A DNA stretch of 64,000 nucleotides from Sulfolobales archaeon (GCA_038867615.1 JAWBYA010000001.1:192001-256000), one strand, 5' to 3'. Numbered from the stretch's first letter, positions 30,306 to 62,174 are shown. Numbers and translations: made by a program. The notes: a model not told the origin generated them from the sequence alone.

Positions 30306-30332
30306 GCAGTATCAAAGGGTGAGGCAGTGGAG

Positions 30333-30676
30333 CCGTAGCCAGCTGCTTCGAGTTTCATGATGGTTTATAGGGGTTGATATCGAATTTATCTCTGTGAAAC
30401 ATTATATAAGCTCTTATATTTCACTGGGATGCCCGCCCAACAATGAGGGTGGGATAGAGATCCAAGTGGGCGGGGTAAATGCAGAGAGATCCAGGATGTG
30501 GGGGTTTCCCCACAGCAATGAACCAGAGAAAATCTATGAGGGGGAGCTGTGGGTTGGGGTCACCTCGAACGGGTGGAGGCCAAGGATATGGGCTCCAATG
30601 AAAGGAGCCCTGAGGCCAATGAAGCCAAGGGCTGAGCGGTTGATATCAATATCAACCACAATGAAGCCCGAACCCC
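30333..30676 (+). mobile_element. family A non-autonomous element, copy A1 (IS607-like, omega-RNA-like cassette)
   Basis: Aligns end to end with 43505-43853 and 61905-62165 (reverse strand). CC at both ends, TATA at 30402-30409, hairpin GGTTGATAT-CA-ATATCAACC at 30638-30657. Confidence 0.85.
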
Positions 30677-40907: not shown

Positions 40908-41123
40908 ATTTCAATTCTATAGTAGATCGACCCTGCGAAGTCATGGTTTGCTTTTAGCCTAACGACATTGGGGTTTCCATCTAGGTTCGAGAGATCATTC
41001 CCTGGGCGGCTTGAAGCTCTGCTCCCATCACCGTCCAGGGTCAGTATTGAGATCAACTCATCACCAGAAACAATTCCGATCAAAGCTTATAAATACCTCC
41101 CACGAGTATCAATAAGAAAACAG
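40908..41123 (-). repeat. family B unit B1: promoter, conserved body, single CRISPR-like repeat (40908-40931)
   Basis: Aligns with 47136-47355 and with the interrupted 43408-43970; ends in GTCGATCTACTATAGAATTGAAAT on the minus strand. Confidence 0.85.
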
Positions 41124-41146
41124 TTCTTCTCATAATTTTATAGTGT

Positions 41147-43407: not shown

Positions 43408-43970
43408 CTTTCAATTCTATAGTAGATCGACCCTGTGGGTTTGTTGATGACTGTTGAGCCCAGCTGCATAGGGCTTCTATCTATTGTGAGATCATTCCCT
43501 AGATGGGGTTCGGGCTTCATAGCGGTTGATTTTGCTTGATATCAACCGCTCAGCCCTTGGTTTCATAGGCCTCAGGGCCCCTTTCATTGGAGCCCTTATC
43601 ACTGGCCTCCACCCGTTCGGGGTGACCCCAACCCACAGCTTCCCTTCATTGCATTGCTCTGGTTCATTGCTGTGGGGAACCCCTGCATTTTGGATTTTAT
43701 TTAACCCGCCCCTCGGGTCTCTATCTCTATCCTCATTGTTGGGCGGCATCCCAGTGAAATATAAGAGCTTATATAAGGTTACATTACTGCAGAACTACGA
43801 GCTTAATATCAACCCCTATAAACCACCATGAAGCTCGAAGCAGCTGGCTACGGCTTGGAGCTATGCTCCCATCACCACCTAGAGTCAATATTGAGATCAA
43901 CTCATCACCAGAAACAATTTTAATCAGATATTATAAATCTTTACATAGGATATCAGTAAGAAAAACAGCC
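43408..43970 (-). repeat. family B unit B2, interrupted by element A2; repeat at 43408-43431
   Basis: Contains GTCGATCTACTATAGAATTGAAAG; the two halves rejoin at a GG when 43505-43853 is removed. Confidence 0.85.
43505..43853 (-). mobile_element. family A element, copy A2 (nested in B2)
   Basis: Full-length match to A1; GG at both ends and no longer target duplication. Confidence 0.88.
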
Positions 43971-47135: not shown

Positions 47136-47355
47136 TTTTCAATTCTATAGTAGATCGATCCCATGGGTTTATGGGCTGCCGTCGAGCCAAACAGCACTTG
47201 ACTCCCATCTAGGTTTAAGGGATCATCCCCCGGATGGCTCGGAGCATTGCTCCCATCACCACCCAGAATCAACATGGAGATCAACTCATCACCAAAAACA
47301 ATTCCAACCATAAGATTATAAATCTTTCCCACGAATATTAAAAAGAAAACAGCCC
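47136..47355 (-). repeat. family B unit B3; repeat at 47136-47159
   Basis: ATCGATCTACTATAGAATTGAAAA; body aligns with B1, B2 and 21609-21661. Confidence 0.85.
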
Positions 47356-47483
47356 AGAGCCTATCCCAAGAAAAGCTCCTATACCGCCGGCTAATCCTGT
47401 TAATACTCTGTCTCGGGTGCTTCTCACAAGCTCCTTGGATGCGATAGCACGCTACCCCTGCTTTAAGTCTTTTAGGTATATTT

Positions 47484-56024: not shown

Positions 56025-56981
56025 ATGTATAAAACCATAATTGTGGGGATCAGTATGATCTGTTCTAAGGCTCCTGGGAAGATAATCCTGTTTGGAGAGC
56101 ACTTTGTAGTGAAAGGGGTTCCGGGTATTGGCATGGCTGTCAGCTCCTATGCAAAGGCATGTGTTGAGGAAAGCGATAAGAACACGGTTTTATCGAAACA
56201 GCTGGGCCTGGTTTATGACGAGGCTGAGGGGGTAGGTTTTGGGGGTGGCTTTGAAGTTATATTCAAGCTCATCGCCTCTATGGGTTGCTCTAAGAGGGTG
56301 AGGGCTTATATAGATTCCTCTATATTTATGGGCTCTGGGATGGGTTCTTCAGCAGCATCCTCGGTTGCTCTGATCCATGCTCTCATGAGGCTCTGCGGTT
56401 TAGACCCCTCTAAGGAGGTTGTGTCTAGGATAGCCTTTGAGGCTGAGAAGGCTGTCCACGGAAAACCTAGCGGTATTGATAATACCCTAGCAACCTATGG
56501 GGGGCTACTTTACTACAGATCCGGGGTTTTTGAGAGGATAGATATCAAATGGCCCGAGGAGTATTCGTTGCTTGTTGTGAACACAGGGATCCATAGAGAG
56601 ACAGGGGTTGTGGTTAAAGACGTTCTAAACCTCTATGAGAGGAGGAGAGGGGTTTTAGAACATATATACAAGGCTGCGGAAGAGCTTGTAAACCAAGCCC
56701 TAGCAATGCTGAAGAAAGGGGATTTCGAGAACCTGGGGGAGTTGATGAATATAAACCAAGGATTACTATATACTGTGAATGTTTCATGCCCGAAATGTGA
56801 GGAGATAATCTGGCTCCTCAGGAGAAACAAAGCCCTAGGGGTCAAGCTAAGCGGTGCTGGGAGGGGAGGGATCATAATAGCCCTATATAGAAAGAAAGAT
56901 CTAGAGGGTGTGAGGCAGCTACTAAAAGAAGAGAGCCTAGTAGTAAGCCTCGACGAGCAAGGGGTTCTTTCAATTTCGTAG
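56025..56981 (+). CDS. mvk: mevalonate kinase
   Basis: APGKIILFGEH, GMGSSAA, HGKPSGID and KLSGAGRGG motifs. Confidence 0.95.
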   Translation: MYKTIIVGISMICSKAPGKIILFGEHFVVKGVPGIGMAVSSYAKACVEESDKNTVLSKQLGLVYDEAEGVGFGGGFEVIFKLIASMGCSKRVRAYIDSSIFMGSGMGSSAASSVALIHALMRLCGLDPSKEVVSRIAFEAEKAVHGKPSGIDNTLATYGGLLYYRSGVFERIDIKWPEEYSLLVVNTGIHRETGVVVKDVLNLYERRRGVLEHIYKAAEELVNQALAMLKKGDFENLGELMNINQGLLYTVNVSCPKCEEIIWLLRRNKALGVKLSGAGRGGIIIALYRKKDLEGVRQLLKEESLVVSLDEQGVLSIS

Positions 56982-56990
56982 TAAATCGGC
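56967..56990 (-). repeat. degenerate CRISPR-like repeat overlapping the mvk stop codon
   Basis: GCCGATTTACTACGAAATTGAAAG (minus strand) is 19/24 identical to the B2 repeat. Confidence 0.65.
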
Positions 56991-57163
56991 GAAACAGTCC
57001 TCGGTGTATAAATAATCGGCTGGGTTTGGGACTTATAAAAACAAAAGATCCCTTGGGTCGTTTTAGAAGATTCTGTGGAAGAAGAGATAAAGATACTAAG
57101 GCTATTGGGTTTTGCCATCATTAAAACTAAGGATCAAATACGAAGTTCCGCATAATATAGTAG

Positions 57164-60145
57164 TTAAGTCGATCTACTAAAGAATTGGGAGAGATCGCGG
57201 TAGAGCTCTACAAGCATCTCCTCCACATCCTCTCTCCTCAAGCTCGGTTGCAGGGCTTTTAACACCATGGTATCTAGCTCGATCCTTTTTTCCTGGGGCG
57301 GGAAGTATTGTTCCGGCAGTCTTTTTAGCTCGGAGTGTTTGAACATATCGAAGATCTCTGAGAGAGTGTTGATCTTACCTTCTGGAAGTGATGTGATATC
57401 AAGGACTGGGAGGAGTTTCCAGTGGGTTATTTTAAGACTGCTCCACGCACCCTCGGTCTCCTCCCTGTGGGCTATGATGCTCATAATCCCCCATGTGGTG
57501 TTAAGCCATAGGCATAGCGCTTTGAGCTTTCTATCATCGTTGCCTGTTTTGAGTCTAACGGCATAGAATATGTTTGAGAGTACAGGTTTTGTAACATAGA
57601 TCGCTGTTACATGGGCTGTGTTGAGCCTTATTCTCTCTGGGACGAGGAGGCTGCTTGCAAACCTCTCAAATATTCTTCTCGCTTTCCCATCCTTCGGAAG
57701 GATCCGGGCGTTAGGATCGGTCTGTAACCGGGTTCTCAACTCTTCTCCCCCACCATATAGGGCTGGCAGAGATCCTGGCGCCTCTGCAGCTCTTCTAAAG
57801 CTATCGTGGAATTGATGCCTGTCAATCCCGATCACCGCTATCTCTCCAAGCCTCTTAACCGGGATCCTTATCTCTCTAGCTCCAAGCCTTATACTACCCT
57901 CTAGCAGCTCTAACACATAGTTTGAGAGCCGCGGGTTTGTGAATGCTAATAGCTTTCCCCAGTTATCCAGGTGCTTTAGAAGCAATCGCCTCGGGATCGT
58001 ATATACAATGCCACAAGATCTTCCAGCCTCTACATTGCTGCCTAGGCTGCTGCTCCCTAGCGTTATATCTATCTCAGCGGCTTTCCCACACCTATCTATG
58101 ATTTCATGTGCCAGCCATACTCCCTCAAGTGCTGTTTTAGGTTTTCTGACCAGGTTTGCTATGCATGTTCTCTCATCCTCAACATGCTTATCAACCCTCC
58201 TTGCGATCACGAGGCACTCGCTCAGGTCTGTAGATTCGCTAAAACCATAGCCTTCTTCGGGATCGTTGCTAACAATAACATATTCTAGGTGGAATCTCGA
58301 TGCTAAGAACGATCGTGCGAGGAACCAGCTTATCCCTGACAAGAGATTCCTGGGTAGAACAAACGCTATCCTACCCCCCTCTTTTACCAGCTCCCCAGCA
58401 ATGTATAGGAAGAGGAGCCCTTCACCAGCCTGTCCAATCTCTAGGAAGGTTTTTACACCTTCCCCGCTGAGTGAGGTTTCTAGTTCTTTCAGGAAAGCCT
58501 TTCCCTCGCTAGTCTCGGATAACATGTATCTCACATATTCTCTAAGTCTCTTGTAGGATCTGAGGAGCTTCTCCCTAGCATGCTTATCCACTATAAAGCC
58601 GAAGAGCCCTGATTCTTTCCTGCCGCCTCTTCCAGTTGCTCTGGTGAAGGGAGGGTTCATTATGATTAGGTCAAACCTTTCTGGAAGATCTATTATTTCT
58701 TCCTTCCTAGAGGCAGAGATCCTGATTATACCTCTGCTCCTCGGAGGGTTTGCAAGAATCCTCTGCACTAGATCCAGGCTTCCCATAGATACAGATCCGT
58801 TAGGGCCTATTCCAAGCGGTGCTGTGTAGATATTCATGCTTTGTGGAGAAGCTTCGGGATTATGGAGGGCAAGGATCGTGGTTGTTATATATGTTGCGAA
58901 TCTAAGGGAATCCAACCCCCAGAGGGTTTTCTCCAAAACAGTCCTGTGGAAGCCCTCAACATCGACTTCCAACCCTTCTTTCAAGCGATCTCTGGTATAG
59001 AGGTATAGAAGACCATCGTAAGAGGCTGAGAGAAGAGTTCCCGAGCCGCATGCTAGATCGGCTATTCTGAAATTATCAAGAGAGCTGAGGCTCTGCCACG
59101 CCTGGTTTGGGGTTGTAAGGGCTAGTCTGGCAAGCAGGTACGATGAAGGTATGCTTGTAAAATATGTTGCTAGGTTCTTCCTAACAGCCCAGCTCCCTAC
59201 TATTGTATGGTATATCTTGCCCGCGAAATCGCGTCTCAACAAGGTCTTGTTGCTTGCTATGCTGCTTGCAAAGCCGATCAGATCCATGATCGCTTGTTGA
59301 GCGTCTATAGGGAGTTTTTCAACGATCTCCTTGGCAATGCTGAAGATCGGTTGGTTGTTTATTTTAACAATACTATCGAAGGCTTTCTCAAGGGCTGGTA
59401 GGCCGTTTCTCCCTCCTACCAGGCTTTCCAGGGGTTTGAGGCCGTGTTTGGCTCTTATACTCTCATAGAGTATGGCGCTTAGGAGGATAGCTAGGGCTGC
59501 TTTACCATAGATCATTTCCTTGATATCCTCTACCTCTCCTATGGAGATGCCGTAGAGTTTATGGAAAACATTGTAGAGCTCTCTACATATAGATAGATCT
59601 CTATCCACAGAGCCTAGGGTTTTGATTAGCCGGTTGATAAGCTTCTCTATCTCCTCCTCGGCTTTTCTAATCATTTCCTCCAAAACCAGGTGCTGGATCG
59701 CTTGGTCTATGCTATCCCTTAGAAGGGGTACATCGACCCTAAGCCACCCTTGCGTGAGCAGCTCTCGCGGAGATTCCTTAGATCTCTTCTCCAAGAAGCG
59801 CGATAGATTTCTCGTCACATCTTCTCCGGGTATGAAGAACCTAGCCCTCAATACAGATCTTTCCAAGATCTCCTCGATCTCATCCTCCGCAACTTCCTCA
59901 GGAAAAGCCTGTCTATCATACCAGATAGCTACGGCTATGTCGCAAAGCCCGCTCTCAAGCCTCTCTATCGCATTTCTTTCAGCAACACGAGCTTCGTAGG
60001 ATCCTTCGAGGGCTATTCTGAAACCCTTATACAGAAGAACTATGCCTGTAGAACCATCTATATATATCTCAACCCTCTCTTTAAAACCATGCCTCCCAAG
60101 CAGCCGGGCTAAGGTCCTGCTAACCCTACCTTCATCGATACCCAA
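57164..60145 (-). CDS. type IIG-like fused restriction-modification protein / large N6-adenine methylase
   Basis: DLACGSG, NPPFTR, C-terminal TRD-like region and an N-terminal segment with IALEGS. Confidence 0.85.
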   Translation of the reverse strand: MGIDEGRVSRTLARLLGRHGFKERVEIYIDGSTGIVLLYKGFRIALEGSYEARVAERNAIERLESGLCDIAVAIWYDRQAFPEEVAEDEIEEILERSVLRARFFIPGEDVTRNLSRFLEKRSKESPRELLTQGWLRVDVPLLRDSIDQAIQHLVLEEMIRKAEEEIEKLINRLIKTLGSVDRDLSICRELYNVFHKLYGISIGEVEDIKEMIYGKAALAILLSAILYESIRAKHGLKPLESLVGGRNGLPALEKAFDSIVKINNQPIFSIAKEIVEKLPIDAQQAIMDLIGFASSIASNKTLLRRDFAGKIYHTIVGSWAVRKNLATYFTSIPSSYLLARLALTTPNQAWQSLSSLDNFRIADLACGSGTLLSASYDGLLYLYTRDRLKEGLEVDVEGFHRTVLEKTLWGLDSLRFATYITTTILALHNPEASPQSMNIYTAPLGIGPNGSVSMGSLDLVQRILANPPRSRGIIRISASRKEEIIDLPERFDLIIMNPPFTRATGRGGRKESGLFGFIVDKHAREKLLRSYKRLREYVRYMLSETSEGKAFLKELETSLSGEGVKTFLEIGQAGEGLLFLYIAGELVKEGGRIAFVLPRNLLSGISWFLARSFLASRFHLEYVIVSNDPEEGYGFSESTDLSECLVIARRVDKHVEDERTCIANLVRKPKTALEGVWLAHEIIDRCGKAAEIDITLGSSSLGSNVEAGRSCGIVYTIPRRLLLKHLDNWGKLLAFTNPRLSNYVLELLEGSIRLGAREIRIPVKRLGEIAVIGIDRHQFHDSFRRAAEAPGSLPALYGGGEELRTRLQTDPNARILPKDGKARRIFERFASSLLVPERIRLNTAHVTAIYVTKPVLSNIFYAVRLKTGNDDRKLKALCLWLNTTWGIMSIIAHREETEGAWSSLKITHWKLLPVLDITSLPEGKINTLSEIFDMFKHSELKRLPEQYFPPQEKRIELDTMVLKALQPSLRREDVEEMLVELYRDLSQFFSRST
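57168..57191 (+). repeat. degenerate CRISPR-like repeat overlapping the last codons of the methylase gene
   Basis: GTCGATCTACTAAAGAATTGGGAG; its first 20 nt are 19/20 identical to the B repeat. Confidence 0.7.
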
Positions 60146-61904: not shown

Positions 61905-62165
61905 GGGGTTCGGGCTTCATTGCGGTTGATATTGATATCAACCGCTCTTCCCTTGGCTTCATAGGCCTCAGGGCTCCTTTCATTGGGGCCCATATCCTGG
62001 ATCTCTCTGTATTTACCCCGCCCACTCGGGTCTTTATTTTTTACCCTCATTGTTGGGCAGCATCCCATAGAATAACAGGGCTTATATAATGTTCATTACT
62101 GCAGAACTACGGGTTTAATATCAACCCCTATAAACCACCATGAAACCTGAAACAGCCGGCTATGG
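61905..62165 (-). mobile_element. family A element, internally deleted copy A3
   Basis: Both ends match A1 and A2; about 85 nt is missing between two AGGAT(G/A)TGGG motifs. Confidence 0.85.
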
Positions 62166-62174
62166 CGGTGACAA

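Follow-up and report, generated by a model that had tools for sequence, protein, structure and literature searches.

We analyzed a 64,000-nucleotide stretch of the genome of a Sulfolobales archaeon (G000 C1:192001-256000; hereafter the window, within which feature coordinates are counted), where a mevalonate kinase gene and a DNA methylase gene converge and sequences resembling the repeats of the host's own CRISPR arrays lie at the 3' ends of both. The kinase gene (56025-56981, plus strand) encodes 318 amino acids with GHMP kinase domains and scores 244 bits against TIGR00549 (cut-off 163). Facing it from the minus strand (57164-60145) is a gene for an N6-adenine DNA methylase-like protein of 993 amino acids, which carries an NPPF motif and has weak matches to Pfam N6_Mtase and, in PADLOC, to MTase_I, mad2 and type IIG. 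Repeat-like sites were scored against a 24-nt consensus of the genome's solitary repeats (GTCGATCTACTATAGAATTGAAAG), two positions apart from the unit of its 122-repeat array. By this measure, a minus-strand site at 56967-56990 matches at 19 of 24 positions and overlaps the last 15 nt of the kinase gene, stop included, supplying the codons L-S-I-S and the TAG, and a plus-strand site at 57168-57191 matches at 21 of 24 positions (19 of the first 20) within the methylase gene's end. The 177 nt between them have a GC content of 36%, and 44 nt upstream of the left site, at 57044-57035, the minus strand reads TTTTTATAAG. The sequence-only reading of this DNA that preceded our analysis had recorded these positions, match counts, codons, interval and upstream motif accurately, and had explained them either as a ~225-bp element with CRISPR repeats as its inverted termini or as leader-repeat units joined to the chromosome at the repeat.

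Tandem and direct repeat scans of the window detected no CRISPR array; the arrays of this genome, whose assembly is 94% complete, sit elsewhere. The main array (C1:626879-634761) has 122 repeats with spacers and adjoins genes for Csa1, Cas1, Cas4, Csx1 and an APE2256-family protein, the C11 array (C11:15505-16574) has 17 repeats of a related unit with spacers and adjoins a Csa2/Cas7 gene, and a cluster of three repeats of the same family lies at C1:487753-487965. At up to five mismatches from the consensus, 171 sites were found in the genome: 142 in three array clusters and 29 elsewhere, including both sites at the kinase-methylase locus. The cas genes (C1:635101-641251) and this locus are separated by ~378 kb.

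The right-hand site is not a product of chance, since the window contains four matches with three or fewer mismatches, this site among them, and 100 shuffles produced none; the concern, raised in the sequence-only reading, that such matches might be common is not borne out. Orthologues of the kinase are present in all 31 genomes searched, G000 included, and among these genomes the kinase-methylase arrangement is shared only by two other species of the genus, G003 (kinase protein 96% identical) and G002 (93-94%), the kinase matches in three other genomes of the genus being at only 31-32%. In both species, the distance from the kinase stop to the right-hand repeat is unchanged, and the repeat has one mismatch in G003 (23/24) and three in G002 (21/24). 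Since these mismatches fall at positions other than the three of G000, the repeat of the common ancestor must have been perfect or nearly so. Searches of genome and metagenome collections with a degenerate pattern of the junction returned the three known lineages only.

The sequence to the left of this repeat is related to the leaders of the genome's own arrays. Local alignment of the 177-nt interior with ~200 nt upstream of the leader box of the main array scored 65 with the plus strand and 22 with the minus strand; shuffled interiors scored 30 +- 5, and none of 500 reached 65. Among GC-matched segments of the genome, 5 of 1000 reached that score, the highest (134) being presumably another copy of the leader. 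The corresponding interiors of G003 and G002 scored 67 and 73 against the same leader, with nulls across the three species of 30-34 +- 5-6 and maxima of 51-57, and scores against the C11 leader were 52 (G000), 47 (G003) and 62 (G002). The ~135 nt at 57033-57167 are thus homologous, on the plus strand only, to the distal leaders of these arrays, with the repeat immediately downstream. The sequence-only reading had seen leader-like sequence upstream of the left site, and here its proposal held for one strand alone: the minus strand of the interior scores 20-30 against the leaders, within the null, and resembles none of them.

The aligned blocks follow one another in leader order: TTATAAA, directed toward the divergent cas gene in the main locus, then AAAAGATCC motifs, then ATCATCAAAAAC..GGATCAA, and finally an AT-rich stretch ahead of the repeat. 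At the kinase-methylase locus, the first of these is the TATA-like CTTATAAAAAC (57033-57044, read on the plus strand; TTTTTATAAG on the minus strand), which aligns with TTTATAAAC between the leader of the main array and its divergent cas gene (sequence C1:635100-635040). The distal leader relic proper (57042-57167, plus strand) comprises a AAAAGATCC motif, a ATCATTAAAAC..AAGGATCAA block and an AT-rich stretch up to the repeat. The 42 nt at 56991-57032, between the left site and the TATA-like sequence, have no significant matches in the genome, and in G002 they are replaced, together with most of the left site, by unrelated sequence (31-38% identity).

On its other side, the repeat marks the end of methylase homology. 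The family to which this ~1000-amino-acid protein belongs is patchily distributed over archaea and bacteria (300 homologues found, 64 related loci compared), and C-termini were compared in 26 aligned members, three from the genus and 23 from outside it. Homology extends to ...ELYRDL (ELYxDL) and stops at the repeat boundary. Beyond it, 22 of the 23 members outside the genus have the Trp of a conserved ...A(F/L)KxW(I/T)G tail, which the three genus members lack: their last eight codons are encoded in every case by the reverse complement of the repeat, yielding SQFFSRST in G000, YQFYSRST in G003 and FQFHGGST in G002. The comparison with orthologues proposed in the sequence-only reading therefore came out in its favor for the methylase, relatives without the repeat carrying other terminal codons. 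The new tail is tolerated, for outside it the protein has stayed intact, with 83-91% identity in G002 and G003. With six or fewer mismatches allowed, a repeat-like site was found at two of the 64 related methylase loci, those of G003 and G002, and at none of the other 62, which makes the link between methylase and CRISPR lineage-specific. No array was detected near any of the 64 loci, within up to 2.5 kb on each side.

The locus is also a break in synteny, as the downstream neighbors of the kinase differ between genera: in four of six sister-genus genomes the kinase is followed by the glycine cleavage gene gcvPA, which in G000 lies 138 kb away. No repeat was found beside the G000 gcvPA in the ~700 nt upstream that were read, the nearest repeat-like site being 3.8 kb off.

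A conserved repeat, leader homology ahead of it and methylase homology that ends at it lead us to conclude that 57033-57191 is probably the remnant of an array leader and its first repeat, joined to the 3' end of an acquired methylase gene. The proposed starting state would be an array running rightward from a leader beside the kinase gene, with a convergent, horizontally acquired methylase gene downstream. A single event between a repeat and the 3' end of the methylase gene, either a deletion or an illegitimate recombination, would have removed all spacers and further repeats along with the native last ~8 codons of the methylase, before the three species diverged. The methylase frame would then have run on through the reverse complement of the repeat, where it stayed open because that complement has no stop in this frame, to end at a TAA within the leader. 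Later drift would account for the loss of the TATA box in G000 and G003, a spacing-shortening deletion in G002 and the mutated handle of G000, and the relic now most likely does nothing beyond supplying a tolerated C-terminal tail.

The promoter of the presumed leader has decayed along different paths. In the live C11 array, GCTTATAAGC stands 36 nt ahead of the first repeat, and at seven further places in the genome a TATA-type box precedes a repeat, or a degenerate repeat box, by ~25-30 nt, six of these TATA-type boxes being intact (TTATAAG/TCATAAG) and one degenerate. This proximal block (GCTTATAAGC of live leaders) is gone in G000 and G003, so that neither retains an intact leader promoter. 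G002 keeps an altered form, ATCTATCTTATGA, whose spacing from the repeat is changed by a loss of ~13 nt. A contig from metagenome run X9 matches 57157-57431 at 83% identity (47 differences in 275 positions), and an X9 contig, possibly a distinct one, lies on the methylase side of the junction and carries GCTTATAAGCTAGATAAGAATA, the leader TATA block, directly to the left of 57154, where its match stops. The leader scores, the lineage-specific losses and the TATA block in X9 together show what appears to be an ancestral complete leader promoter and repeat, since decayed differently in each lineage. Identity between species is 75-88% for the repeat itself, compared with 82-89% for the methylase coding sequence next to it and 61-89% for the leader relic, which is the pattern expected of drift and not of strong conservation. 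The 8-nt handle that the repeat would contribute to a CRISPR RNA (crRNA) reads ATTGGGAG in G000 in place of ATTGAAAG; it is mutated in G000 (GGGAG) and G003 (GATAG) and intact in G002. No second plus-strand repeat with seven or fewer mismatches was found within the 390 nt examined, and the unit therefore lacks the two or more repeats and the spacer of a functional array.

Several observations weigh against a simple relic. Neither an empty-site allele nor a spacer-bearing allele was found, and contigs from four metagenome runs covering 56300-58000 contain no joints, spacer allele or empty site, so that the deletion itself is inferred and not seen. The arrangement persists in three species and one metagenomic lineage, longer than might be expected of junk, and between G000 and G002 the repeat is kept somewhat better than the leader relic (75% versus 61%), though the repeat is coding sequence. 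The handle is intact in G002, which also has a TATA-like box, and X9 has a full TATA box, which makes transcription of the solitary repeat possible in some lineages. Finally, a match with five or fewer mismatches is expected within +-300 nt of a given site at a frequency of only 7e-5, and the left site is left unaccounted for.

It is possible, if rather doubtful, that both sites are real and represent the remains of two outward-facing arrays around a shared center, with the cas genes and left leader lost by deletion and each terminal repeat fused to the 3' end of a neighboring gene. Outward-facing array pairs with inward leaders flank the adaptation cas genes in Sulfolobales. The left site is consistent with such an origin in that its 3' 8 nt, the handle part, match perfectly, in that a perfect repeat would end the kinase frame at its own TAG, exactly where the present TAG lies, and in that the minus-strand TTTTTATAAG corresponds to the TATA facing the divergent cas gene in the main locus. 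Matches of this quality are also rare: 40 dinucleotide-preserving shuffles of 626 kb of C1 gave 0.075 sites per shuffle at five or fewer mismatches and none at four or fewer. Moreover, other outward-facing pairs of repeat-like sites occur in this genome, at C1:485790 (-) with 487753 (+) and at C1:606099 (-) with 607854 (+).

The comparison between species, however, does not favor a second array. The left site has six mismatches in G003 and is absent from G002 even at seven, so that no species approaches the consensus; the sequence of G002 is unrelated from roughly the tenth position within the site as far as 57041 (31-50% identity), with 46-50% identity across the site. Four of the five mismatches in G000 fall in the core, which is mostly kept in other solitary copies, and the perfect 8-mer is kinase coding sequence. 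Kinases of the sister genus end in ...GVSQI*, similar but not identical to ...GVLSIS* here, and use partly the same codons without any repeat. The 78 nt around the left site scored 26 against the whole leader plus first repeat (null 22 +- 3.5, reached by 87 of 500 shuffles), and comparison of the left flank with leaders in the three species, on both strands, gave nothing significant. Among 20 comparisons, one gave a gapped match of 35 nt between this flank and a region preceding the C7:43773 leader (z 5.5), which was judged too weak. Of the leader-repeat units put forward in the sequence-only reading, the right-hand one is thus borne out by its leader homology and by the end of methylase homology, and the left-hand one, which has no leader likeness and is missing from G002, is not. 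We consider the left site somewhat better explained as a chance match than as a much older and more decayed repeat scar, although the latter retains a substantial share of the probability. Either way, it lies outside the leader-repeat relic, and the reading of the right-hand repeat is unaffected by it.

A further explanation is that the unit has been retained for use, with transcription into the methylase 3' end and cleavage by Cas6 giving a handle-tagged antisense RNA that tunes the methylase, or with the repeat acting as a Cas decoy. Conservation of the arrangement in three species and a metagenomic lineage with an intact leader TATA, together with the intact handle ATTGAAAG in G002, would fit such a role, and regulatory or anti-CRISPR solitary repeats have been described elsewhere (PMC10120712; PMC10651486). 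Against it stand the deleted TATA box and mutated handle of both G000 and G003 and a rate of drift about equal to that of the flanking sequence. The effector complement of G000 is likewise unsupportive: Cmr2 was not found in this genome, Csm1 is represented by a 22-bit fragment only, and the interference modules that were found are of type I-A (two Csa2/Cas7 genes), which target DNA. Cas6 itself is weakly indicated, PF01881 giving nothing and TIGR01877 two 21-bit matches below its cut-off. Among the sequencing runs listed as containing window positions 56600-57600, none is recorded as RNA. Nor does the locus resemble the regulatory mini-arrays of Shmakov et al. (PMC10120712), as it has one same-strand repeat, no spacer and a position ~378 kb from the cas genes. 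The self-regulatory crRNA suggested in the sequence-only reading is disfavored because the proximal TATA is lost in G000 and G003, because the handle is mutated in G000, and because in the 94%-complete assembly Cmr2 was not found and Csm1 gave only a fragment. Retention for use is accordingly very unlikely as an explanation of the locus, and a present-day function in G000 hardly to be expected on the sequence evidence; it would be less unlikely where TATA box and handle are kept.

The remaining explanation is that a non-autonomous mobile element of ~225 bp, with CRISPR repeats as its terminal inverted repeats, entered the DNA between the kinase and methylase genes. It can draw on the two inverted repeat-like ends 177 nt apart and on the abundance of short repeated elements in the genome, including a subfamily with a CRISPR repeat at its end, but it is highly implausible and already close to refuted, given that BLAST of 56900-57260 against the genome returned, beyond the self-match, only the 24-nt repeat at E <= 0.01 and hence no second copy of the interior, that the interior is homologous to leaders in one direction only and shows no relationship to the families of repeated elements found, that no target-site duplication was seen in the flanks when read by eye, and that G002 has the interior and right arm without the left.

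Degenerate CRISPR parts are known from other systems. Shmakov et al. (2023; PMC10120712) describe standalone repeat-like sequences and degraded mini-arrays that are enriched in cas loci and, in their survey, depleted in intergenic regions elsewhere. Similarly to these elements, the repeat at the kinase-methylase locus is single, derived from the host's own arrays, partly degraded, not part of an array and kept in close relatives (PMC10120712). The elements in that account lie in or next to CRISPR-cas loci and often have a spacer matching a cas or toxin promoter (PMC10120712), whereas the present unit, ~378 kb distant from the cas genes, lacks a spacer, retains a recognizable leader and is fused to coding sequence. 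Orphan arrays and viral solitary repeat units (SRUs) have been reviewed by Mojica and colleagues (PMC8616872). The locus shares with orphan and degenerate arrays the presence of CRISPR parts away from cas genes, which that review reads as system degeneration; orphan arrays as described there keep at least two repeats and a spacer, unlike the leader and one repeat found here, with the repeat inside an open reading frame (ORF) (PMC8616872). RNA anti-CRISPRs (Racrs) are built on solitary repeats (Camara-Wilpert et al., 2023; PMC10651486), and the locus is like SRUs and Racrs in having one repeat copy behind a promoter-like region and no spacers (PMC8616872; PMC10651486). In contrast, SRUs and Racrs are presented in these sources as viral or borne by mobile elements, and expressed, while the unit at the locus is chromosomal and its promoter has decayed (PMC8616872; PMC10651486). 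The likeness is closer for the promoter-bearing, repeat-ending elements of this genome, described below, than for the locus unit.

With the live C11 and C1 arrays, the relic shares the repeat family and the distal-leader blocks (AAAAGATCC motifs, ATCATCAAAAAC..GGATCAA); those arrays have 17 and 122 repeats, spacers and adjoining cas genes, and the relic has one repeat and no spacer, nearby cas gene or proximal TATA. The locus is a further case of CRISPR degeneration, made unusual by its distance from the cas genes and by having become fused to the coding end of a gene. We see in it an ordinary scar, and neither a new mobile element nor a regulator that has been shown to act. Phrase searches of the literature returned no description of such a fusion, nor of mobile elements ending in CRISPR repeats, a result that does not establish their absence.

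Beyond the kinase-methylase locus, solitary repeats in this genome are frequently carried on a repeated element of ~215 nt, in which a TATA box (ATTTATAAGC) is followed by a conserved, hairpin-rich body of ~165 nt and the final 24 nt are a CRISPR repeat, perfect or nearly so. Such elements account for ten of the 29 solitary sites. The eleventh copy (window 43408) is split by an insertion nested within it, and in two more divergent copies the likeness is limited to part of the body. The long hairpin comprises 43 predicted pairs and is supported by compensatory changes in nine of them. In the window these elements lie at 40908-41146, 43408-43964 and 47136-47374, all on the minus strand, and elsewhere at C1:114557, 143598, 485433 and 535916, C2:202754, C4:201440, C5:93961 and C7:66523. 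About half are upstream of a gene on the same strand and about half face a convergent gene; the copy at C5:93961 has an orthologue in G003.

The parent of these elements is a promoter-bearing, structured family of ~280 nt ending in ...ATCCAGGGACAAACGG, here called family B. G000 copies include C2:148730-149010, C1:10854, C1:74254, C2:203252, C4:194551, C5:32341, C6:15312 and C7:67470, with relatives L111-L120, and several copies lie at contig ends. Scored matches number at least 26 in each of G000, G002, G003 and G005 and 18-21 in G001 and G004. Outside the genus, three of the six sister-genus genomes and a single genome from each of two additional genera, five genomes in all, have one or two matches apiece, and the stems co-vary between genera. 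In the repeat-ending subfamily, ~80 nt of family B are replaced by the CRISPR repeat, and at least one copy, together with its G003 orthologue, keeps the family's GAGACAAACGG tail after the repeat. Neither the repeat-ending element nor family B has a meaningful Rfam match at E <= 1. Identification of family B as RNase P RNA, a C/D-box sRNA, a TnpB element bearing omega-RNA or a group II intron was considered by eye, and none was adopted. A 661-amino-acid ORF starting inside one copy has no Pfam match, and no recurrent transposase was found beside the 14 family B copies checked.

BLAST returned more than 50 genomic matches to a second repeated family, ~350 nt long (reference copy C2:148359-148712), which is represented in the window at 43505-43855, nested inside the repeat-ending element at 43408, at 61905-62166 and at about 30329-30676. 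Rfam at gathering score recognizes only two tRNAs in the window and, at E <= 1, nothing meaningful on the kinase-methylase locus; the tRNA match at 451-550 covers 100 nt against a model of 71 positions and is probably an intron-containing tRNA gene.

Some other repeats stand where chromosomes of the genus differ. Upstream of a DUF72 gene, G000 (C1:450529-450552) and G003 (L123) have a leader-type TATA, a repeat and the ACAAACG tail of family B, and the same spot in G002 (L124) holds a family B copy, which looks like an exchange between an element-borne repeat and an array leader. Upstream of hutH, G000 (C1:429078-429157) and G002 (L127) have a leader, a repeat, a 32-nt spacer and a truncated repeat; G003 (L128) is unrelated from the exact truncation point outward, which places this synteny break inside a CRISPR repeat. 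CRISPR debris also surrounds protoglobin and MarR-family genes at C1:485433-487965, comprising a TATA with a perfect repeat at 485790 (-), the repeat-ending element at 485433 (-) and a leader with a three-repeat mini-array at 487753-487965 (+). At the end of a 5.7-kb contig (C27:5474-5694), a near-copy of the main-array leader is followed by one repeat and then by unique, coding-looking sequence; this is either another locus of leader and single repeat or an assembly join. These arrangements suggest that element-borne and array repeats may recombine with one another and so reshape the chromosome.

A more far-reaching possibility is that the genus spreads CRISPR repeats on promoter-bearing units, in the form of leader plus repeat or of the ~215-nt structured mobile RNA element, and that these would be used as Cas6 or Cascade decoys, as handle-tagging signals and/or as homology for recombination between arrays and chromosome, the methylase unit being a retained case that gives an antisense, handle-tagged RNA. 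We regard this as distinctly unlikely. If true, solitary repeats resident in the host would resemble RNA anti-CRISPRs, and the gene affected here would be one of restriction-modification type.

As the remnant of an array, the kinase-methylase locus would show what the death of an array can leave behind: a leader and a repeat that became the C-terminal codons of a neighboring defense-type gene and survived three speciations. For annotation, it indicates that solitary repeats in coding ends need not be guide RNAs or the arms of mobile elements. The wider pattern may matter more: this genome of 2.2 Mb has 29 repeat-like sites that belong to no array, some of which are carried on a promoter-bearing repeated RNA element and others of which coincide exactly with synteny breaks, standing against the general depletion of such sequences outside cas loci that has been reported from survey data (PMC10120712).

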